Below, piece by piece: positions 5,351 to 54,706 of a stretch of DNA of 64,000 bases (position 1 is its first letter; every line of letters starts with the position of its first letter). Position numbers and translations under genes: made by a program. The DNA is taken from contig DAOUAK010000038.1 in the NCBI GenBank assembly GCA_034433695.1, positions 2,758 through 66,757 on the forward strand, written 5' to 3'. The notes under the pieces were generated by a model that did no database searches, was not told where the DNA came from, and saw nothing but the letters and a program-made list of their open reading frames with translations. The DNA is from Chloroflexia bacterium (GTDB lineage Bacteria > Chloroflexota > Chloroflexia > DTKN01).

Positions 5351-6259
5351 ATGAGACTCCGTTTCCTTCAGAAATCGTACAGCCTGCGCAACAGCGGCAT
5401 CAATCCATCCGGCTTCCACCCCAGCCAGATTCAGTTCTACATCATCCTGGCTCCGGTGGTGGCCTTTATGCTCCTGCCGATCATCTTTATTATCTCCAAC
5501 GCCTTCAAGCCGCCCGAGGAACTCTTCGCCTACCCGCCGCGCTTCTTCGTCGTCAACCCAACGCTGAAGAACTTTACCGACCTTTTTACCCTGATGACCG
5601 TCTCCGAGGTGCCGGTCAGCCGCTACCTGTTCAACAGCATTGTCCTCACGGCCATCTCCATAGGGGCTTCCATTGCCATCTCCAGCACGGCGGCCTATGC
5701 CCTCTCCAAGAAGCGCTTCAGGCTCAAGCAGACGCTCTTTGCCGTCAACACCGTGGCGCTGATGTTCGTGCCCGTTGCCGTTACCATCCCGCGCTTCCTC
5801 ATCATCGCCCGTCTGGGACTGATCGATACCTTCTGGGTACACATCCTCCCTGCACTGGCCATGCCGGTCGGACTCTTCCTGCTCAAGCAATTTATCGACA
5901 CCATCCCGGACGAGGTCATCGAGGCAGCCCAGATCGACGGTGCCTCCGACCTGCAGATCTACTGGCGCATCGTCCTGCCGCTGGTCAGACCGGCCCTGGC
6001 CACCATCGCCATCCTGACCTTCCAGGCCACCTGGAACAATGCCGATACCTCGGCCATGTATATCAACATCGAAAACCTCAAGACCTTCGCCTACTATCTC
6101 AGCACACTTTCGACGACAACCGCCGGGGCGAACGTGGTGGCCGGCCAGGGTATGGCCGCAGCGGCAGCACTGATCATGTTCGTGCCTAACCTGATCATGT
6201 TCCTCCTCCTGCAAAGTCAGGTCATGAGCACGATGTCGCATTCGGGGCTAAAGGGATGA
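5351..6259 (+). CDS. Carbohydrate ABC transporter permease (MalG/UgpE-like)
   Basis: Multi-TM protein with the conserved loop [16 protein letters not shown], which is EAA-motif-like. Confidence 0.85.
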
Positions 6260-8271
6260 AACGTCTGCCGCTCTTCCTCGTTCTGGTGCTCTTATTGCTC
6301 CTCCTGATTCCGGGCGTGCCCGCGCAGGCCCTGACCCCTTATACGACCTGGGCGCTGGGGCCGGGCGGCCGACTCTACCTGACACAGGACGCCTACGTTC
6401 CCGTTTCGGAGGTGCCCCTGCCCTTGTCCGGTGCGGAGGATATGTTCATCACCGCAGAAGGAGACCTTTACATCGCCGATACGGGCAACGGCCGCATCCT
6501 GCGCCTGGACAGCAACTGGCAGATCGTGGCAACCTACGGCGAAGGGCTGCTCCGAAAGCCGAACGGCCTCTTTGTGGACCCCGAGGGAACGATGTACATC
6601 GCCGACGCCGGAAACAACTCCATCGTCATCCTCGACCATGACGGCACACTGGCCACGAGTTTTGGCCGGCCGAACGAGGCGCTCTTTGGCCGCAGGAACG
6701 AGTTCCTGCCTCGCAAAATCGCCGTAGACACGCGCCAGAACCTCTATATCGTCAGCGAGGGTTCGACCGATGGCCTGGTGATGATGACCCGAGACGGACG
6801 CTTCATCGGCTACTTTGGCGCGAACCCGGCCACGATGTCCTTGAAGATGCTCTTGCAGCGCCTGTTCCTGACGAGGGAGCAACTGGCGCAATTCATCAAG
6901 AACGAGGCGGCCTCGCCCTCCAATGTAGCCATCGACAGCGAAGGGATGATCCTTACCGTAACCTCGGGCACGGCCCGCGAGCGCAGCATCCGCCGTTTCA
7001 CCGTCGCCGGCCACAATATCTTCCCCGAAATCTACGGCTCGACGACCTTTCGCGACCTTCATGCCAGTCCGAACGGCCTGGTCACAGCGGTAGATGCCGA
7101 GGGACGAATCTACGAGTACGATCGGAAAGGAATGCTCCTCTTTGTCTTCGGGGCCCAGGACAAAGGGGAGCAACGCCTGGGACTGCTCCGCAACCCCACC
7201 GCCATCGAACGCTATCAGGACTGCATCTATGTGCTGGACAAGGACAAGAACGCCATCGTCGTCTACCGGGAAACGAGGTTTGCCCGTCTGGTCCATGACG
7301 GTGTGCGGCTGTATGTGGAGGGCTTTTACAGCGAGGCACGACCTTACTTCGAGGAGGTGCTGCGCTATAACGGCTTATTCATCATGGCCTACCAGGCCAT
7401 CGCCGATGCGTACTTCAAGGAGGGCGACTATATCCGCGCCCTGACCTATTATCGCTATGCCGAAGACCGCCGGGGCTATTCCGAAGCCTTCTGGGAACTC
7501 CGCAACGTCGTCCTGCAACAATACCTGGCAACCGGCCTCCTCGGGCTACTCGGCCTCCTCGTTGCCCAGGGGGCCCTCAAACGCCTCGACCGCCGCTACG
7601 CCTGCTTCGCTCCGGTACGGCGTGGACTGGCCTGGCTGTGCCGCCGCAAACTCGTGGACGACTTTCTTTTCCTCTTTCGCTTCATCAAACACCCCGCCGA
7701 TAGTTTCTATTACATCAAGGCCAAACAGCGCGGCAGCCTGGCGTTTGCCCTCCTGATCTATCTGTGGGTGGTCATCGTGCGGGTGCTGACCCCTTACCTG
7801 ACCGGATTTATCTTCAATCCCTACGCCAACCCGGGAGAAATCCGCGCCGAAAACGAGGTCGTCTACACCCTCCTCTTCCTTCTGCTCTGGAATGCGGCGA
7901 ACTACCTGGTCTCGACCATCAGTGAGGGTGAGGGCCGCGTCCGGGACGTCGTCATCGGCAGCGCCTACGCGCTCTCCCCTTACGCCATTTTTGCGCTGCC
8001 AATCGCCCTCCTCTCCAACGTCCTGAGCGCCAACGAGGCCTTTTTTTACACCTTTTCCATGAACCTGGTATGGGCCTGGACCGGGCTGATGCTTTTCCTG
8101 ATGGCCAAGGAAATCCATAACTACTCCTTCGGCGAAACGGTCCGTAACGTCCTGCTGACCCTCTTCACGATGGCTATGGCGCTGCTGGCCGGCTATATCC
8201 TGTATGTGCTGGCCTCCCAGTTCTATGACTTTATCTCGGCCATCTGGCGGGAGGCACAGTTACGTGGTTAA
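6256..8271 (+). CDS. Membrane protein with N-terminal signal, NHL repeats, TPR-like region and C-terminal Yip1-like multi-TM domain
   Basis: NHL-like repeats [14 protein letters not shown] and [17 protein letters not shown]-like segment ([22 protein letters not shown]). C-terminal ~250 aa with 5-6 hydrophobic helices. ATGA overlap with the upstream permease. Confidence 0.6.
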
Positions 8272-8272
8272 G

Positions 8273-10411
8273 ATGAACAGGGCCTTGACCTTTTTCCTGC
8301 TTCTCCTCTTCCTTCTGCCGGCGCCGGCCGTATTCGCCGCGCCTTCTCCAGACGCTATCCCGGGAACCTATACCCTGGTTGCTGAAAACGAGAACTTTCG
8401 CCTATACGTCAATCCGGAAACCCTGGCTTTCAAGGTGCTGGACAAGCGTAGCGGTTACCTCTGGCATTCCAGCCTGGACGAAAAACTCCCCGAGGACCGC
8501 CTGAACAGGTCCTGGCTCGCTTTCGCCCAGAGCGGGTTCAGCGTGGACTGTCTGGACTGGAAAGCCAACACTCGGCGGGTTTCTATCGCCAGCGCCGAGC
8601 ACACGATGGAGGTCCGGCCCATTGAAAACGGCCTCCAGGCCCAGGTCACCTTTAGCGATGTGGCCATTTCGGTGGGGTTGCGCCTGATCCTGGAGGAAAC
8701 CGGCGTGCGGGTCGAGGTGCCATTCGAGACCATCCGTGAGGACGGCGACTTTCGCCTGGGCATGCTCCATCTTTACCCCTGGATGGGCGCGACGCGCGGC
8801 GACGAAACGCCCGGTTATATGTTCATCCCCGACGGCTGTGGGAGCCTCATCCACTTCGCCGCCGAGACAAAAGCCCGGAACATGTACTATGGCCGCTACT
8901 ACGGCATCGACCTGGGCATGGTGTCCCACCTGCCTTTCGATCCGGCCATCCGCCGGCCTTATCCCATCTCCATCCCGGTAATCGGCATGGTGCATGGCGA
9001 GGGGCAGAACGCCTACCTGGCCGTCCTGGAAAAGGGCGCGTCCTATGCCGAAATCCAGGCCCATCCCTCCGGCATCCTCACCAACTTTAACTTTCTCTAC
9101 AACGCCTTCATCTACAACGAGAGTTACTTCCAGCGCACCAGCCGGGCCGGCGATGGCGTGACCGTCGTTCAGCCCCGCACCAACCGCTTCGACATCGTCA
9201 TGCACTACCGCTTCCTCACCGGCCGGGAGGCCGACTATGTCGGCATGGCCCGCAGTTACCGGCAGTACTTGCTCGAAAAAGGGCTACTTCGCCGACAGCC
9301 GCTGCCCTCCGACGGCATCGGTATCCGTCTGGAGTTCCTGGCCGCCGAGCAGGAGAAAATCCTGTTCTGGAACCGCACCATTCCGATGACGACCCTGCCG
9401 CAGATGGAGCAAATCCTGGCCGAACTGGACGTTACGAACCCTCAGGTCATCTACTATGGCTGGCAGCCCGGCGGCGCTTCGGCCATGCCGCCTGCCTACC
9501 TGGCCCTGGATGGCAGCCTGGGCACCCTGGCCGACCTGGGCAGGGTGGCCGAACAGGTCGCTCGCCGTGGCGGGGCCTTCGCCTTGTACCTCGATCCCCT
9601 GGCGGCGATCCGGGATCAGGGGGGGTACTCGCGCTACGACCTGGCGGTAGCCATCACCGGCGATTACCCGCAAGGCTACCGGCGGGGAAAGCCCAATTTT
9701 TTCCTCAACCTTCCGGCCCTGGAAGCGCGTCTCGGTTCTCTCGGCCGGGAGATACAGAGCAAGGTCCCGGCCGGCCTGGCCCTGGATAACATCGGCACTA
9801 CCCTGTACTCCGACTTTCGCCAGGACAACCTGCTCAACCGGGAGGAGGCGATCGACGCCTACCGTTCCCTCCTGGCCGCCATACCCGTCCCGCTGGCCCT
9901 GTACATGCCGAACGACTACCTCTTCGCCTATGCCCGGGCCTATTACGATATCCCCATCGCCGACAGCGGCTACATCTATACCACGGCGACGGTGCCTTTC
10001 CTGCAAATCGTCCTTTCCGGCTATATGCCCTACTACGGCGAGGCCCTCAACTTTTCTCCTGACGTGCGCCAGGACCTGCTCCGACACGCCGAGTACGGTG
10101 TCTATCCCTCCTTCTTCCTTACCTACGAGGAAACCGCCCGCATCCTGAAGACCCGGTCGAACTGGATTTACGTCTCCGCCTACCGCCAACTGGAAGCGGG
10201 GATCGAAGATAGTTATGCCTGGCTGAATGCCCTGCTGTCCCCGGTACAGGGGGCCAGCATTGTCGGACATGCACAGGTCGCCCCCCAGGTGTTTGCCACC
10301 ACCTACAGCAACGGCAAGCAGATTCTGGTCAACTATAGCGAGCACCCCGTCTCACTCTACGGCCTCACCGTTCCGGCCCGGGATGCCATCTTGAGGGAGG
10401 TAATGCCATGA
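8273..10411 (+). CDS. Hypothetical secreted protein (712 aa), possible glycan-active enzyme
   Basis: Start at MNRALTFFLLLLFLLPAPAVFAAPSP (signal peptide), 1 nt after the upstream stop. No confidently recognised catalytic motif. Embedded between two ABC permease pairs. Confidence 0.5.
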   Translation: MNRALTFFLLLLFLLPAPAVFAAPSPDAIPGTYTLVAENENFRLYVNPETLAFKVLDKRSGYLWHSSLDEKLPEDRLNRSWLAFAQSGFSVDCLDWKANTRRVSIASAEHTMEVRPIENGLQAQVTFSDVAISVGLRLILEETGVRVEVPFETIREDGDFRLGMLHLYPWMGATRGDETPGYMFIPDGCGSLIHFAAETKARNMYYGRYYGIDLGMVSHLPFDPAIRRPYPISIPVIGMVHGEGQNAYLAVLEKGASYAEIQAHPSGILTNFNFLYNAFIYNESYFQRTSRAGDGVTVVQPRTNRFDIVMHYRFLTGREADYVGMARSYRQYLLEKGLLRRQPLPSDGIGIRLEFLAAEQEKILFWNRTIPMTTLPQMEQILAELDVTNPQVIYYGWQPGGASAMPPAYLALDGSLGTLADLGRVAEQVARRGGAFALYLDPLAAIRDQGGYSRYDLAVAITGDYPQGYRRGKPNFFLNLPALEARLGSLGREIQSKVPAGLALDNIGTTLYSDFRQDNLLNREEAIDAYRSLLAAIPVPLALYMPNDYLFAYARAYYDIPIADSGYIYTTATVPFLQIVLSGYMPYYGEALNFSPDVRQDLLRHAEYGVYPSFFLTYEETARILKTRSNWIYVSAYRQLEAGIEDSYAWLNALLSPVQGASIVGHAQVAPQVFATTYSNGKQILVNYSEHPVSLYGLTVPARDAILREVMP

Positions 10412-49815: not shown

Positions 49816-52308
49816 ATGGGTAATCCGTTGGACCGATTTACCGAACGCGCCAGACGGGTGTTGAGCCTGGCCCAGGAGGAGGCCAGCGCCCTCAACCATC
49901 GCTATATCGGCACCGAGCACATCCTTTTGGGGCTTATTCGGGAGGGCGAGGGCACGGCGGCCCGTGTCCTGGCCGAGATGGGAGTGAACGCGGAAAAAGT
50001 GCGCGAGGCCATTGAACTCCTGGTAGGCCGGCCGGAACGGACCTCCTCCCACGAGCGAGAGTTGACGGCCCAGGCCAAAAAGGCGCTGGAGTACGCGATG
50101 GAGGAGGCTCGCCGCCTCAGCCACAGTTATATCGGCACGGAGCACCTCCTCCTGGGCATCCTCCGCGGGCAGGACAATGTGGCCACCAGCATTCTGGATA
50201 ACGTCGGAGCCAACCCCAATAAGGTGCGGGAACGCCTCCTCCAGGTCCTGCAGGAAGTTCCGGCGGCCGTATCGGCCCCGCAGACCCGGCAGAGCAAGAC
50301 CCCCTACATCGACGCCCTGGGGCTGGACCTGACCGAGGCCGCCCGGGCCGGCCGGCTGGACCCGGTCATCGGTCGCGAGACCGAGATCGAGCGGGTCATC
50401 CAGATCCTCTCCCGCCGAACCAAAAACAACCCGGCGCTGGTGGGTGACCCCGGCGTGGGCAAGACGGCCATCGTCGAAGGCCTGGCCCAGCGTATTGTGC
50501 GCGGCGAGGTGCCCGAACACCTCCTGAACAAGCGCCTCCTGGCCCTGGACATGGGCGCCGTGGTCGCCGGAACCAAATACCGGGGCCAGTTCGAGGAACG
50601 TCTGAAGCGGGTGGTGGACGAAATTCGGGAAACCGGGAGCATCCTCTTCATCGACGAGTTCCACACCATTATCGGGGCCGGCGGGGCGGAAGGCAGTCTG
50701 GACGCGGCCAACATCCTCAAGCCGGCCCTTTCCCGCGGCCAGATTCAATGCATCGGGGCTACCACCCTGGATGATTACCGCAAATACATCGAGCGCGATG
50801 CCGCCCTGGAACGGCGTTTCCAGCCGGTCTATGTGAACGAACCCTCGGTGGAAGAAACGATCCATATCCTTCGCGGCATCGCTCCCCGCTACGAGGACTT
50901 TCACCAGGTCAAAATCAGCGATGAAGCCTTGATCGCCGCCGCCCGCCTCTCCGCCCGGTATATCAGCGATCGCCACCTGCCGGATAAGGCCATCGACCTG
51001 ATGGACGAGGCGGCCGCCCGCGTGCGTATGTACCGGTTGGGCACCGCCTCTCCGTTACGCCAGGCCCTCCAGGAACTGGAGACGCTACGCCGGCGCAAGG
51101 ACGTCGCGGTGGAACAGCAGAATTTCGAGCAGACCATCGCCCTGCGGGAGGAAGAAAACCGCCTGCTGCCCCGCATCGAGGAACTGCGCCGGGGACAAAC
51201 GATGGAATCGCGCCCGATGGTTTCGGCCGAGGACATCGCCGAGGTGGCCTCGATGTGGACAGGTATCCCGATGACCCGTCTGGCCCAGGAGGAGTCGGCC
51301 CGTCTGGTGCGCATGGAGGAAGAGTTGCACAAACGCATCGTTGGCCAGGACGAGGCCATTCAGATCGTCTCTCGGGCCATCCGACGGGCACGGGCCGGCC
51401 TGAAAGACCCCCGTCGGCCCATCGGCTCCTTCATCTTCCTCGGCCCCACCGGCGTGGGCAAGAGTGAATTGGCCCGCGCCCTGGCCGAATTCCTCTTCGG
51501 CACCGAGGATGCCCTGATCAAACTCGATATGTCCGAATTTATGGAGCGCCACACCGCCGCCCGCCTGGTCGGCGCTCCCCCGGGCTACATCGGCTACGGC
51601 GAAGGGGGGCAACTCACCGATGCCGTGCGCAACCGCCCCTACAGCGTGGTCCTCCTGGACGAGATCGAAAAGGCCCACCCCGACGTCTTCAACCTCCTCC
51701 TGCAACTGATGGAGGACGGCTGCCTGACCGATGCCAAAGGGTGCAAGGTGGACTTTCGCAACGTCGTCCTGGTGATGACCTCCAACGTGGCCGCCGAAAA
51801 GATTATCCGCGGCTCCACCTGGGGCTTTTCTTCGCGCAGCGACCAGAGGGCGACGGAACTGCGCGAGTATGAGGCGATGAAGGAAAAGGTGCTGGCCGAA
51901 CTGAAGGACCTCTTCCGCCCCGAATTCCTCAACCGCGTGGATGCCATCGTCGTCTTCCACGCCCTCAACCCCGATCACATCCGCCAGATCGCCCGGTTAC
52001 AACTGCGTCGGGTGGAGGAACAGTTGCGGGAGGCCGGCTTCACCTTGGAAGTCACCGATGCGGCCGTGAACCTGCTGGCCCAGCGCGGCTTTGACAGTGC
52101 CTTTGGGGCCCGACCGCTCAAGCGGGTCATCACCAACCTTCTGGAGGACCCCCTGGCCGAGGCCATCCTGCATGGCCGCTTCCATGCCGGCGATACCATC
52201 GTCGTGGATGCCCTGGACGAGCAAATCGTCTTCCGGGCCGCCGGGGAGCCGGCCCTGGCCCCACCGGAGGACACAGGGGTGGCGCTTCAGGAGGTGAAGA
52301 CGAATTAG
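49816..52308 (+). CDS. clpC: ATP-dependent Clp protease ATP-binding subunit ClpC
   Basis: Two Clp_N repeats, UVR-like linker, two AAA+ modules ([15 protein letters not shown] and [15 protein letters not shown]) and ClpB_D2-small domain. Confidence 0.95.
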
Positions 52309-52579
52309 CCGGTCGGCTATATCATCTCCATGATCCCGCACGACCTGGACCTCTACTTCACCCTGTAATGTAGATCACTCGCAATTTTTAAAAGTCGGAG
52401 TATAATGATTATACTGAGCTTCTGCCACCTCTCCTACCTACCCTCCCCGGCAGAAGATGGGGCAGTACTCGGGTATCCTTTTAGGCAAGCGGGTTATAAC
52501 ATCCAAGAAAGGAGGGCTATTTGAACCTCTCTTGGACCCAGGACCTGTCTTTTGCGTTTTCCTATCTAGGAGGAATCCC

Positions 52580-54277
52580 ATGCGACGCGCACGTGTTTGG
52601 TTCCCGATTTTGGTATCCGCCCTGATCGTTGCCCTGATTTCGGTCGGTGTGACCCTGGCCGGCGGCCCACCGATCCCTCCTGACGCCACGCCGCCCCCTC
52701 CTCAACAGCCCCGGCTTCCGGAACGCCACCCCGGCAACGCCCCCGCCGGCCAGGAAACGACCGGGGCCGGCCTGACGGTCGTCCCGACCGGCCAGATCAG
52801 TTACCAGGGGAAACTCCTCCAGAACGGCGCTCCTTACAACGGCAACATCAACATCACCTTCCGCCTCTATAGGGAGGCAAGTGGCGGCACCGCCTTCTGG
52901 GAGGAGACCCAGAATGTGGCCGTCTCGAACGGCCTTTTCAACGTGTTGCTGGGCGCGGTCAACCCGATGGCCGACGCCCAGGAGTTCTATGAGCAGGTCT
53001 GGCTGGGCATCCAGCCGGCCGGAGCCTCGGCCGAACTCACCCCCCGCCAGCCGCTGAGCACCGTGGGCTATGCCATGAACCTCCTCCCCGGAGCGACGAT
53101 GGTGGACCCCGGCCTCACGGGCTACTGGACCTCGTTCTACGTAGAAAGCCATAACCACCCCGCTATATACGGTTTCTCCGACACCGACATCGCCATCACC
53201 GGCGAGACCTCCTACACCGATACCAGCGCCATCGCAGGGCTTTCCTACGGTTGGGCCGGCACCGGCCTCTACGGCTATGCCGAACAGAACGGCACCGGCG
53301 TCTACGGCTACGGTGAGGGCACCGGCGGACTCTTCGGCGGCGGTATCGGCGTCTACGGCGAGGGCAGGAACGGCTTCTTCAGCGTCGGCGTCTACGGCGA
53401 GGGCGATACCTGGGGCGTCTTTGGCACCGGATTCTTCGGCGTGGCGGGCAGCAGCATGGTCACGGAAAGTATCGGCGTCTATGGCATAAGCAGCGGGTCC
53501 GATGCCAGCGGCGTCTACGGCGATATGACCGGCGATGTGCCGTCTTGCCCCGGGGGCGACACCCACTGCGGTGCCGGGGTCTACGGCACCGCCTCCGGCG
53601 ATGCCTACGGCTCCTTCTTCTACGGGAAAAACCGTTCCAGCATCATCGCTTTGGTCGCGCCGGACAACTACTACGGCCTGTGGGTGGACACGTTGGCGTC
53701 TCCGGATGGGGTCGGCATCTGGACAGACGGCCAGAGCCAGTTCGACGACTATGTCATCTTCAACGGCGGCAAGAGCGGCTACGTCGTGGACATCGCCCGC
53801 AACGGCGGGACGGAGCCTTTGGAGCGCGGCGACGTCGTGGTCATCAGCGGCTATGACAGCCCCGTCGTCGGCAACATTCCGGTCATCGTGGTGACCAAAG
53901 CCACGGAGGCCAACGCCACCGGCGTCGTCGGGGTGGTGGACGTGCTCTATGTGCCGTGCGACCGACCCCAGGAGGAGTTACAGGCCGGCGAGGCCTGCGG
54001 CGGCTTCGAGGAGAGCGTTACCACCATCCGGCCTGGCCAGTACCTCGCCGTGGTCACGCTGGGAGCCTATGGCTACATCAAGGTGGATGCCTCGGGCGGC
54101 CCGATCCGCCCCGGCGACCTCTTGACCGCCTCCTCCGTAGCCGGATATGCCGCCAAGGCTCCGCTCCTCACCGTGGAGGGCGTCTCCTTCCACGCTCCCG
54201 GGACGATCATCGGCAAGGCCCTGGGCGGTCTGGACAAAGGCACGGGGTTCATTCCGGTCTTTGTCTCGGCCCGCTAG
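52580..54277 (+). CDS. Secreted/anchored hypothetical protein with Pro-rich linker, conserved N-terminal beta-rich domain and Gly/Tyr-rich GVYG repeats
   Basis: Signal/anchor MRRARVWFPILVSALIVALISVGVTLAGG, PPIPPDATPPPPQQP linker, and ISYQGKLLQNGAPYNGNINITFRLY...VSNGLFNVLLGAV. At least 8 degenerate repeats of G(V/L)(Y/F)G (GVYGYGEG, GVYGEGRNG, GVYGEGDTWGVFGTGFFG, GVYGISSG, GVYGDMTG, GVYGTASG). Confidence 0.5.
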   Translation: MRRARVWFPILVSALIVALISVGVTLAGGPPIPPDATPPPPQQPRLPERHPGNAPAGQETTGAGLTVVPTGQISYQGKLLQNGAPYNGNINITFRLYREASGGTAFWEETQNVAVSNGLFNVLLGAVNPMADAQEFYEQVWLGIQPAGASAELTPRQPLSTVGYAMNLLPGATMVDPGLTGYWTSFYVESHNHPAIYGFSDTDIAITGETSYTDTSAIAGLSYGWAGTGLYGYAEQNGTGVYGYGEGTGGLFGGGIGVYGEGRNGFFSVGVYGEGDTWGVFGTGFFGVAGSSMVTESIGVYGISSGSDASGVYGDMTGDVPSCPGGDTHCGAGVYGTASGDAYGSFFYGKNRSSIIALVAPDNYYGLWVDTLASPDGVGIWTDGQSQFDDYVIFNGGKSGYVVDIARNGGTEPLERGDVVVISGYDSPVVGNIPVIVVTKATEANATGVVGVVDVLYVPCDRPQEELQAGEACGGFEESVTTIRPGQYLAVVTLGAYGYIKVDASGGPIRPGDLLTASSVAGYAAKAPLLTVEGVSFHAPGTIIGKALGGLDKGTGFIPVFVSAR

Positions 54278-54287
54278 GAGGGATGCC

Positions 54288-54578
54288 ATGCGCAAGCAAG
54301 TCGGTCGGATCCTCTTCTCCCTCCTGGTGTTGACCCTGTTCGGCGGCACCGTCCTGGCGCAGACCGGCGACGGCTTCGACCTGACCTGGAACGTGATCGG
54401 CGGGGGCGGCGGAGGCGGCCCGATGACCGGGAGCGACTTCTTCGTGGACAGCACCCTCGGTCAGACGGCCATCGGGCCGGCCACCCAGGGAGACTGGTGG
54501 CTCGGCCAGGGCTACTGGTACGGCACCCCGTCCGCCTTTGGGGTCTACCTCCCGGTGGTCCTCAAGGGCTGGGATTGA
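54288..54578 (+). CDS. Small secreted hypothetical protein (97 aa) with poly-Gly tract
   Basis: Signal peptide MRKQVGRILFSLLVLTLFGGTVLAQT, then DLTWNVIGGGGGGGPMTGSDFFVDSTLGQTAIGP...WWLGQGYWYG. Begins 11 nt after the repeat-protein stop. Confidence 0.4.
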   Translation: MRKQVGRILFSLLVLTLFGGTVLAQTGDGFDLTWNVIGGGGGGGPMTGSDFFVDSTLGQTAIGPATQGDWWLGQGYWYGTPSAFGVYLPVVLKGWD

Positions 54579-54672: not shown

Positions 54673-54706
54673 GGCCAAGGCCCAGGTTCCGGCCTGGGCC
54701 TTGGCC
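54673..54706 (+). terminator. 14-bp perfect GC-rich hairpin (terminator candidate) downstream of the small secreted protein gene
   Basis: GGCCAAGGCCCAGG-ttccgg-CCTGGGCCTTGGCC, followed by TTCTCTGG. Confidence 0.5.

Follow-up and report, generated by a model that had tools for sequence, protein, structure and literature searches.

Chimeric fibres of the MAT (mosaic adhesive trimer) type were described only in 2024, in the predatory Bdellovibrio bacteriovorus (Caulton et al. 2024, PMC10769870), and it was proposed there that the N-terminal domain of these proteins sits beside the cell and binds a surface element that the authors did not identify. Two further systems lie close to the locus studied here. 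The YLP-box, a short motif found in small exported proteins, carries the NCBIfam designation of a putative sorting motif. Bacteria of the Candidate Phyla Radiation carry a Pam pilus whose tip pilin is predicted to be PamT (bioRxiv 10.64898/2026.03.03.709456; NCBIfam NF058579). This small exported single-domain protein is predicted to take up a strand donated by the adjacent subunit and offers a precedent for docking by strand complementation.

The window, that is the whole stretch of 64,000 nucleotides of Chloroflexia DNA that was analysed, holds a two-gene unit which we believe, at a probability of roughly 0.6, builds a MAT-like chimeric and probably trimeric cell-surface fibre together with a partner protein dedicated to the base domain, which would anchor the fibre or help to assemble it. 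The unit was resolved into the following features.

52375-52415, plus strand: AT-rich promoter-like region, with a likely -10 element TATAAT at 52401-52406
52416-52579, plus strand: long conserved 5' leader ending in AGGAGG, with more than 90% identity to the related locus L001 and two indels
52568-52573, plus strand: ribosome-binding site AGGAGG of ORF1, 6 nt upstream of the ATG
52580-54277, plus strand: ORF1, coding sequence of the putative fibre protein including the stop codon, 565 aa (ORF translation and homologues)
52580-52660, plus strand: ORF1 aa 1-27, predicted Sec signal peptide or N-terminal membrane anchor (read from the sequence)
52661-52789, plus strand: ORF1 aa 28-70, Pro-rich spacer of variable length (composition, AlphaFold, homologues)
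52790-53074, plus strand: ORF1 aa 71-165, conserved beta-rich base domain, MAT_N-like (SYQGxL ... PRQxL ... YA; AlphaFold, NCBIfam)
53075-53764, plus strand: ORF1 aa 166-395, Gly/Tyr-rich variable stalk (composition, motif count, AlphaFold)
53264-53587, plus strand: GVYG repeat cluster, ORF1 aa 229-336 (motif count)
53765-54274, plus strand: ORF1 aa 396-565, C-terminal domain, conserved, of probably beta-tulip-like fold and with two GD motifs (fold matches)
54276-54281, plus strand: ribosome-binding site AGGAGG of ORF2, overlapping the ORF1 stop codon
54288-54578, plus strand: ORF2, putative secreted partner, 96 aa (ORF translation and homologues)
within 54288-54578, plus strand: ORF2 signal peptide, aa 1-24 (VLA/Q), and small Gly-rich beta module, aa 25-79 (homologue alignment)
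54543-54566, plus strand: YLP-box VYLPVVLK, ORF2 aa 86-93, three residues before the C-terminus (alignment)
54673-54706, plus strand: 15-bp G+C-rich hairpin, possible terminator or RNA-end stabiliser (folding against shuffles)

Organization and expression signals of the unit

Both genes are real and conserved, lie in the same orientation and are each preceded by a strong ribosome-binding site. There are 224 homologue matches for ORF1 and 39 for ORF2. Two figures of an earlier, sequence-only reading of this DNA need amending, as ORF1 translates to 565 residues plus the stop codon and not to 566 residues, and the gap between the ORF1 stop and ORF2 is 10 nt and not 11. A gap of 10-13 nt recurs in related loci (L001, L002, L004, L007, L069, L070, L071, L072), and distant ORF1 homologues (30-36% identical) are likewise followed 10-13 nt downstream by an ORF2-like gene of 88-101 aa with the YLP motif at its end. 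ORF1 and ORF2 most likely form a single operon. A longer in-frame ORF1 start at 52457 was rejected because L001 carries a 5-nt and a 1-nt indel upstream of the ATG; the homologues are 565 aa long. Antisense ORFs (e.g. 52562-53566, minus strand) were taken as by-products of the high G+C content and were discounted since the homologues back the plus-strand genes.

Homology to L001 begins near 52363, though the upstream genes of the two loci differ, and the TATAAT at 52401-52406 is kept in that relative. The unit had been credited with an AT-rich promoter of its own, and the preservation of this AT-rich stretch behind another upstream gene agrees with that view. The promoter scan called a different element, TTTAAA-17-TATACT at 52387-52415, of which the TATACT is not kept in L001. 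No Rfam family was found for the 5' leader, the one sub-threshold match lying on the opposite strand and outside the leader, and Rfam searches of the unit and the whole window as well as a tRNA scan returned nothing. The hairpin lies 95 nt past the ORF2 stop, in a 71-nt stretch with a folding energy of -46.3 kcal/mol (z = -4.46; equally good folds in 0 of 200 shuffles), and its 10-bp core is preserved in L001 with a single G-C to U-G change. A strong terminator had been read here; the hairpin is a possible one, is without a U-run and was not called by the consensus terminator scan.

ORF1, a probable fibre protein

ORF1 begins with MRRAR, followed by 20 hydrophobic residues and TLA/GG, and AlphaFold places a helix at aa 4-21. 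Its homologues have the same N-terminal layout, often with AxA-Q past the hydrophobic stretch, and the anchor or signal that had been proposed for this protein is in keeping with that shared layout; the segment is predicted to be either a signal peptide that is cleaved or an anchor that is retained. The next part had been described as a Pro-rich linker, and it indeed consists of 32% Pro over aa 30-70, has a pLDDT below 50 and varies in length and sequence among the homologues.

The base domain that follows is modelled by AlphaFold with six strands at a pLDDT of 90-96. The NCBIfam model Bdello_MAT_N (NF053851) matches 16 of the 55 members of the family (best E-value 3.9e-9), and it matches the ORF1 of the window over aa 71-127 with E = 0.0064 and 16.3 bits, below the curated cut-off of 60, which sets ORF1 apart from the MATs. 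At the level of the family the base domain is, judging from these profile matches, homologous to the Bdellovibrio MAT N-domain. The conserved-looking, beta-rich N-domain of the earlier reading is in this way both confirmed, by its six confident strands, and given a relative.

The stalk is rich in Gly (22.5%) and Tyr (8%) over aa 165-400. Within aa 229-336 it contains nine G[VL][YF]G motifs at intervals of 7-22 residues, where 0.27 would be expected by chance, and this number was reached in none of 20,000 composition-preserving shuffles. Degenerate repeats of about nine residues had been reported from the sequence; the repeats are far above chance, but across the ORF1 family the motif spacing peaks at 10 and 12 residues and not at 9. 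Among homologues the repeat count ranges from 0 to 10 and the stalk region carries large indels. It had also been suggested that the repeats form a beta-solenoid. The pLDDT of the AlphaFold monomer falls below 50 for aa 163-287, and a monomeric beta-solenoid is consequently not supported. One pair of Cys residues lies in the stalk (aa 324 and 332) and another in the C-terminal domain (aa 460 and 474), and both pairs are conserved in the closer ORF1 homologues, as expected of an extracytoplasmic protein.

In fold, the C-terminal domain comes closest to the base of the phi29 head fibre gp8.5 and to phage capsid decoration or cement proteins of the beta-tulip type. The beta-tulip matches include PDB entries 6qyy, 9kmg, 8qsy and 8hdt, at moderate scores and with no matched query range given, and a comparison with a viral structure library returned a tail protein and collagen-repeat phage fibre proteins, all of them predicted structures. 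The modelled fold of this domain may thus be said to resemble those of phage head-fibre base and decoration proteins. Pfam has no family for ORF1 or ORF2, none of the 224 ORF1 homologues has a Pfam domain, and by Pfam ORF1 itself has no S74 domain. Sequence searches of the PDB, with the single sequence and with a profile of the C-terminal domain, gave no meaningful match.

ORF2 and the YLP-box family

ORF2 ends in VYLPVVLK-GWD, in which the family shows little or no variation at Y87, L88 and P89. The sequence-only reading saw a shared flavour between the two proteins, and this is true of their composition; hhalign profile-profile comparison finds no homology, and the idea that ORF2 is a relative of ORF1 was rejected. 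As its alignments indicate, ORF2 is a member of a separate, very large and unannotated family of secreted proteins of about 95 aa with a YLP-box. In total 12,622 cluster representatives (clusters at 50% identity) were found at E <= 1e-3, mostly 90-110 aa long. The NCBIfam models sort_motif_YLP (NF050076) and ultrashort_CTERM (NF053834) match 16 and 10 of 31 ORF2 homologues, respectively, though weakly (best E-value 0.0059), and the ORF2 of the window has no NCBIfam match even at E <= 10. The AlphaFold monomer of ORF2 has a mean pLDDT of 55.

Modules of the ORF2 type are also found fused to enzymes and to Ig-like or cadherin-like proteins, and in some relatives the YLP motif is internal, with further domains after it. 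Because the family counts more than 12,000 clusters and includes such fusions, ORF2 may serve more generally in sorting or anchoring and not bind the base domain specifically. The idea that further proteins of the window carry a generalised YLP motif was rejected, ORF2 bearing the sole copy in 64 kb. A full-text literature search on the YLP motif found no bacterial paper.

Linkage of ORF2-like genes to the base domain

The linkage of ORF2-like genes with base-domain genes is near-obligate. Counting loci whose upstream flank extends to 2.5 kb or more, all of them found by patterns derived from the ORF2 subfamily of the window, an ORF2-like gene adjoins a base-domain gene in 33 of 34 distinct loci; the base-domain gene lies upstream on the same strand in 31 of them, downstream in 2, and is absent from 1. 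The linkage is independent of the remainder of the fibre protein, as the neighbouring base-domain proteins carry Peptidase_S74 (L015, L021), collagen triple-helix repeats (L014, L022), Kelch repeats (L010), a lactonase-type propeller (L017) or a beta-tulip-like domain. Of these parts, collagen repeats and S74 are established components of trimeric fibres. The base-domain family extends over Chloroflexota and other phyla that do not include Bdellovibrio. Apart from the fibre gene, the only neighbour that recurs among related loci is a gene for a Wzy_C+TPR membrane protein, which in six loci is found directly upstream of the fibre gene and which points to a connection with the envelope. With base-domain genes adjoining in 33 of the 34 loci, a joint function of ORF1 and ORF2 is argued for.

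Proposed assembly of the fibre

It had been suggested that the unit resembles a surface fibre, an adhesin or a phage tail fibre, and the homology to the MAT N-domain, the sister proteins with collagen repeats or S74, the phage-like fold of the C-terminal domain and the export signals all point the same way. We propose that ORF1 would be exported via Sec and that its N-terminus, as an anchor or a cleaved signal, would together with the Pro-rich spacer hold the base domain beside the cell envelope. The Gly/Tyr-rich GVYG region would form a stalk of variable length, probably as an intertwined trimer, and the beta-tulip-like domain would cap the distal end as a trimer-forming domain or a binding tip. 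On this proposal ORF1 would trimerize, be located on the surface and take part in adhesion. The polarity of the fibre could be reversed relative to the proposal because, by analogy, the matching phi29 domain is the base of a fibre and not its tip.

ORF2 would be exported separately and would bind the base domain through its Gly-rich beta module, while the YLP-box would fix it to the envelope or sort it into the envelope. A protein that binds the base domain and is anchored by its YLP-box would help the base of the fibre to dock or assemble, and it is this putative contact between ORF2 and the base domain that would make ORF2 a partner. The near-constant small secreted neighbour is a concrete candidate for such a role, and it ties in an unannotated family with a C-terminal YLP-box, which at 50% identity comprises more than 12,000 clusters. 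A physical link would account for the mounting of these fibres on cell envelopes, in this case in phyla known mainly from metagenomes, and would for the first time place the YLP-box in a functional setting; without such a link, the locus would still be a well-defined, ordinary example of a secreted fibre protein.

A wider proposition, which we put forward tentatively and regard as rather doubtful, is that YLP-box proteins of the ORF2 type are the envelope element onto which MAT-type base domains dock. If this were true, the base domain and its YLP-box partner would be a widespread two-component mount for interchangeable fibres in Chloroflexota, Phycisphaerae, Sumerlaeota and Zixibacteria, and the upstream Wzy_C+TPR protein might then be the enzyme by which YLP-box proteins are sorted, ligated or glycosylated.

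Alternative explanations

ORF1 might instead be a structural tether or strut of the envelope, membrane-anchored at its N-terminus and clamped by its beta-tulip-like domain onto an S-layer or sheath lattice, much as decoration proteins grip the lattice of a capsid, with ORF2 as a co-secreted component of the layer. A hydrophobic segment of 20 residues followed by a Pro-rich spacer would suit a retained anchor and a wall-spanning linker, although the AxA-Q sites of many homologues suggest cleavage of the signal. The proteins closest in fold to the C-terminal domain, among them the base by which the phi29 head fibre attaches to the capsid, occupy three-fold positions on the lattices that they bind, and the Gly/Tyr-rich composition is like that of structural matrix proteins; the sister base-domain proteins, however, terminate in propellers of the Kelch or lactonase type or in fibre ends processed by S74, which look like exposed binding tips rather than lattice clamps. 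The setting of the unit among housekeeping genes (in the window ClpC, MarR and an ABC transporter, with neighbours that vary between loci) and its single occurrence in 64 kb would also fit a structural component, but no S-layer or sheath gene adjoins it in any locus examined. On balance we consider a tether unlikely. ORF2 could also be a secreted Gly-rich peptide with an activity of its own, bacteriocin-like or signalling, with ORF1 unrelated and merely co-transcribed. It is small, Gly-rich and exported, and one multi-copy relative weakly matches Pfam microcin V (E = 0.0018, below the cut-off). Nonetheless, its signal is an ordinary Sec signal with no double-glycine leader, no immunity or export genes adjoin it in the window, the same module also occurs as a part of surface enzymes and of Ig-like or cadherin-like proteins, and the linkage in 33 of 34 loci speaks for a joint function. 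An independently active peptide is very improbable.

It had been proposed to look for homologues of the unit in prophage regions, and a prophage or tailocin remnant, in which ORF1 would be the tail-fibre gene and ORF2 a small assembly chaperone, does have points in its favour. A large fibre gene closely trailed by a small one is the classic layout of such pairs, the fold of the C-terminal domain matches phage proteins, and S74, which occurs in related base-domain proteins, is typical of phage tail spikes. Against this, both proteins bear a Sec signal, which is absent from the tail fibres of phages and from the accompanying chaperones, and the pair is kept across several phyla in housekeeping surroundings that differ from locus to locus. 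No phage genes were found near the unit in the window or in any related locus. PHROGs gave no match for ORF2 and for ORF1 a single one, to a family without an assigned function (E = 0.043). In 50,697 GenBank phage records tblastn found no match to either ORF1 or a distant C-terminal domain, and pattern scans of IMG/VR with the ORF2 and base-domain alignments found no relatives. A phage origin in this sense is largely refuted, and we give it next to no credence. The reading that we prefer is still that of a cellular fibre with a partner for its base.

Comparison with known systems

With the tail fibres of phages and their assembly chaperones the unit shares the arrangement of a large fibre gene and a small gene within about 10 nt, but ORF2 has a signal peptide and no phage family match, and the locus is without phage genes. 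Compared to phage decoration proteins and phi29 gp8.5, the C-terminal domain of ORF1 has no sequence similarity to them and stands at the C-terminus of a cellular protein with a predicted Sec signal, with no capsid or phage context.

The likeness of ORF2 to PamT is limited. Matches to about the first 80 of the 241 positions of the PamT model were obtained for 13 of 31 ORF2 homologues, with a best E-value of 4.5e-6, but they are confined to the N-terminal third of the model (positions ~5-84 of 241), signal peptide included, and score no higher than 34 bits where the cut-off is 240. ORF2 is also much shorter (96 aa, as opposed to about 240 aa for PamT), and there are no annotated pilin or chaperone genes beside the unit like those of the pam operon (PamA/B, PamC/D). 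With the YLP-box family ORF2 shares a predicted export and the YLP motif near its C-terminus.

The MAT fibres are the closest counterpart of ORF1, and several differences separate the two. ORF1 has about 565 aa and MATs about 1,000 aa; in ORF1 a 43-aa Pro-rich spacer splits the signal from the base domain, which in MATs comes directly after the signal; and the ORF1 stalk is Gly/Tyr-rich with GVYG repeats. In the accessible text of the MAT paper (PMC10769870) a beta-tulip-like C-terminal domain is not among the tips described, and no counterpart is mentioned of the conserved small YLP-box gene that adjoins ORF1. The same text reports that the MAT domain is without a strong match among solved structures, and this holds for the base domain of ORF1 as well. 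Both have a signal peptide followed by a conserved beta-rich base domain, detectably homologous between them, and both have the character of phage tail fibres. They also share a mosaic design in which one base is joined to many stalks and tips, with S74 and non-S74 forms in the related loci, and the analysis shows the MAT-type base domain in use in distant and largely uncultured phyla with comparably mosaic stalks and tips.

Organisation of the two-gene unit

The reading best supported by the analysis is that ORF1, the large gene of the unit, encodes a Sec-exported cell-surface fibre of a chimeric kind resembling the mosaic adhesive trimer (MAT) fibres of Bdellovibrio, and that it is encoded with a dedicated partner of its base domain, the small secreted protein of ORF2. 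The unit and its surroundings are:

49816-52308: ClpC-type ATPase gene, upstream of the unit
52580-54277, + strand: ORF1, 565 aa
54288-54578, + strand: ORF2, 96 aa
54673-54706: 15-bp G+C-rich hairpin, 95 nt after the ORF2 stop codon
54781-54809: near-consensus sigma-70-type promoter (TTGACA, 17 nt, TATACT; 11/12 matches), before the MarR and ABC-transporter genes
downstream of the unit: MarR regulator and ABC transporter genes, served by this promoter of their own

Both ORFs have AGGAGG 6 nt before their ATG, and that of ORF2 overlaps the ORF1 stop codon, so that the genes lie 10 nt apart (the sequence-only reading had given 11 nt, and 566 aa for ORF1) and are probably coupled in translation. 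A longer in-frame ORF1 start at 52457 was rejected, since the homologues have 565 aa and the 92%-identical relative L001 differs there by two indels, one of 5 nt and one of 1 nt. The MarR/ABC-transporter promoter was also kept in L001. No tRNA genes or Rfam families were found across the 64-kb window.

The unit had also been credited with its own promoter and a strong terminator. Over the ~215 nt 5' of the ORF1 ATG, a stretch that includes TATAAT (52401-52406) as well as the ribosome-binding site, the window and L001 share more than 90% identity, although the context beyond it differs: in L001 clpC and the fibre cassette are separated by an inserted restriction-modification pair (N6_Mtase/Eco57I and RE_AccI; 6207-9406), and at the window counterpart (52309-52362) clpC lies directly upstream, homology resuming where the conserved stretch begins. 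Thus, the promoter belongs to the cassette, as had been proposed, and so does the long leader. The terminator claim was upheld only in part, because the hairpin folds far more strongly than shuffled sequence (z = -4.46) but has no U-run and lies at a distance from the stop codon; L001 retains its 10-bp core, in which a single G-C pair is changed to U-G.

Anatomy of the probable fibre protein

ORF1 had 224 homologues, with identities falling from 92% to about 29%, and a Pfam search assigned no family to ORF1 or ORF2. The family alignment and an AlphaFold model built on it divide the protein into five parts:

aa 1-27: signal or anchor (MRRAR, 20-residue hydrophobic helix, TLA/GG)
aa 28-70: Pro-rich spacer, length-variable, disordered in the model
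aa 71-165: base domain, six-stranded beta, pLDDT 90-96
aa 166-395: stalk, Gly/Tyr-rich, pLDDT <50 through aa 287
aa 396-565: C-terminal domain, pLDDT 80-96

The N-terminus is a putative Sec signal or retained anchor, and in many homologues AxA-Q follows the hydrophobic stretch. The Pro-rich linker and Gly/Tyr-rich run described from the sequence were borne out by composition (32% Pro at aa 30-70; 22.5% Gly and 8% Tyr at aa 165-400), and the N-domain is conserved and beta-rich as had been thought, its six strands accompanied by motifs kept among homologues (SYQGxL, TFRLY, GLFxVxLG, WLGIQP and PRQxL..YA). In the stalk, nine G[VL][YF]G motifs were found at aa 229-336, where the composition of aa 166-395 would yield 0.27, and none of 20,000 shuffles reached nine; the repeat observation therefore exceeds chance, but the motifs lie 7-22 residues apart, and across the family their spacing peaks at 10 and 12 residues rather than at the ~9 first proposed. 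Among homologues the stalk shows large indels and from 0 to 10 GVYG motifs, and a Cys pair (aa 324 and 332) is conserved in the closer clade.

In the window protein aa 71-127 match the NCBIfam model Bdello_MAT_N weakly (E = 0.0064), below its curated cut-off. Since 16 of 55 aligned family members match the model, the best with an E-value of 3.9e-9, this match becomes solid at the family level, indicating that the base domain is homologous to the MAT N-domain.

Two GD motifs (LERGDVVV, IRPGDLLT) mark the C-terminal domain, which also contains the second Cys pair of the protein (aa 460 and 474) and closes with the conserved sequence GTG.IPVFV. Ranking next after the phi29 head-fibre base, its best fold match, were decoration, cement and capsid-stabilising proteins of phages (FCWL1, HFTV1, Pam3, Sf11, YSD1, BB1, TW1) and a herpesvirus triplex protein, a set that we take to correspond to the beta-tulip fold. 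The alignments span 164-200 columns, a length that points to the 170-aa C-terminal domain rather than the 95-aa base domain. In a viral structure library the matches were a Colwellia phage tail protein, collagen-repeat phage proteins and Mtd-N proteins. Sequence-level searches gave no bridge to this domain among solved structures and no match to it in GenBank phages. With a profile of the domain more than 5,000 proteins were recovered, and Pfam recognised no domain in any of them; some have no signal and contain GxVGIGT, a motif typical of phage-like fibres.

The proposed small partner and its gene linkage to the base domain

ORF2 consists of three elements:

Sec signal: cleavage at VLA/Q, A24 nearly invariant
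module of ~55 aa: F/YxLxWxVIGGGGG ... TLGQxAIG ... GYWYG
VYLPVVLK: three residues from the C-terminus

A word-seeded search found 39 homologues and an exhaustive profile search 12,622 cluster representatives, most relatives being stand-alone proteins of 90-110 aa. AlphaFold did not fold ORF2 alone (mean pLDDT 55). A kinship of ORF2 with ORF1 was rejected, as comparison shows no relationship. Among five module-bearing proteins (P0280, P0282, P0325, P0348, P0416), the module is present three times with dockerin or with Ig/cadherin-like domains, or once and terminally in a C10 peptidase, a polysaccharide lyase-like protein and a NosD-type beta-helix protein, the last of which itself ends in the YLP motif. 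In P0287 and P0296 the motif is internal and another domain follows. The NCBIfam model of this YLP-box, labelled a putative sorting motif, matched 16 of 31 ORF2 homologues weakly, and a second model 10 of 31. Weak matches to the first ~80 positions of the PamT model were seen in 13 of 31 (best E-value 4.5e-6), PamT being the predicted strand-accepting tip pilin of the CPR Pam pilus (bioRxiv 10.64898/2026.03.03.709456). The window ORF2 matched neither the YLP-box models nor PamT in the NCBIfam scan, and a literature search found no paper on a bacterial YLP motif.

Every open frame in 68 loci, retrieved by way of ORF2 or ORF1 relatives, was scanned with one profile each for the base domain, the C-terminal domain and ORF2. 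Upstream flank of 2.5 kb or more was available for 34 distinct ORF2-like loci; of these, a base-domain gene lay upstream on the same strand in 31, just downstream in two and nowhere in one (L023). The count applies to loci retrieved by patterns from the window's ORF2 subfamily, one part of the 12,000-cluster family. The remainder of the base-domain protein varies, being a beta-tulip-like domain in about half of the loci and collagen repeats, Peptidase_S74, Kelch repeats or a lactonase-type propeller in others, so that the wider family is mosaic and what ORF2 accompanies is the base domain rather than the GVYG stalk or the C-terminal domain. This gene linkage is the decisive evidence. Conversely, each of four distant ORF1 homologues (30-36% identical; L069, L070, L071, L072) is followed, 10-13 nt downstream, by an ORF2-like gene of 88-101 aa with the YLP motif at its end.

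The named hosts are Anaerolineae, Thermoflexales, Chloroflexia, Ca. Aquidulcis, two Phycisphaerae, a Zixibacterium and a Sumerlaeota genome. One locus (L015 508-5207) has two cassettes in tandem, a 577-aa base-domain and beta-tulip protein with a 109-aa ORF2-like open frame, then an 811-aa base-domain and Peptidase_S74 protein with another ORF2-like gene. In L020 and L005/L006 (a Phycisphaerae and a Sumerlaeota genome) the order is reversed, the leading ORF2-like gene being called longer (232 aa) in Sumerlaeota and lying within a 264-aa open frame in Phycisphaerae; at the Sumerlaeota locus two fibre paralogues flank glycosyltransferase genes. L023 (Phycisphaerae), the sole ORF2-like locus with ample upstream flank where no base-domain gene was detected (4.9 kb, E <= 1e-3), may be a true exception or have a diverged partner.

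In six independent loci the gene immediately before the fibre gene encodes a Wzy_C+TPR membrane protein of ~650-720 aa:

L005 5865-7829: Wzy_C+TPR gene
L013 80-1411: Wzy_C+TPR gene
L031 437-2458: Wzy_C+TPR gene
L033 4-714: Wzy_C+TPR gene
L070 2657-4813: Wzy_C+TPR gene
L072 2212-4179: Wzy_C+TPR gene

Among the members of the Wzy_C family are O-antigen ligases and protein O-oligosaccharyltransferases. This recurrent neighbour, which tblastn (1e-5) did not find in the 64-kb window, supports an envelope-linked or glycosylated product, and it may act on the fibre or on the YLP-box proteins, by glycosylation or by ligation. L072 also encodes a second YLP-box protein (640-2178), a secreted 512-aa NosD-like parallel beta-helix protein that ends in NYLPTILRN and lies two genes before the fibre gene.

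Interpretation and comparison with known fibres

A surface-fibre, adhesin or phage-tail-fibre-like architecture, as put forward from the sequence, accords with the MAT-N homology and the decoration-protein-like C-terminal fold. The export signals, the genomic context and the negative phage searches largely refute the idea of a prophage tail fibre and its chaperone: a search for homologues in prophage regions had been suggested, and the flanking genes at the related loci examined are housekeeping genes that vary between loci, with no phage genes seen. A bacteriocin-like role of ORF2 does not fit, as it conflicts with the base-domain linkage, and we consider it unlikely that ORF1 is a structural tether from the membrane to an outer layer.

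The fibre would be exposed at the cell surface and act in adhesion. Collagen and S74 domains and decoration-protein-like folds belong to trimers; the ORF1 fibre is probably trimeric too, because its sisters carry collagen or S74 on the same base, it has decoration-like folds and its stalk fails as a monomer model. ORF2 would bind the base domain and itself be held to the envelope through its YLP-box. The weak PamT similarity and the failure of ORF2 to fold alone suggest that this contact might be made by strand complementation.

The 21 MAT fibres described from Bdellovibrio have in common a beta-rich domain of ~130 aa that directly follows the signal peptide and, according to that report, has no structural homologue; they form trimers, and 13 of them carry an S74 chaperone-protease at their end (PMC10769870). 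The fibre described here is MAT-like, yet it occurs in other phyla and has a different stalk, and its proposed C-terminal tip domain is not known from MATs. What is new is a small YLP-box partner, conserved beside a MAT-like fibre gene; it is a testable candidate for the element on which MAT-like fibres dock.
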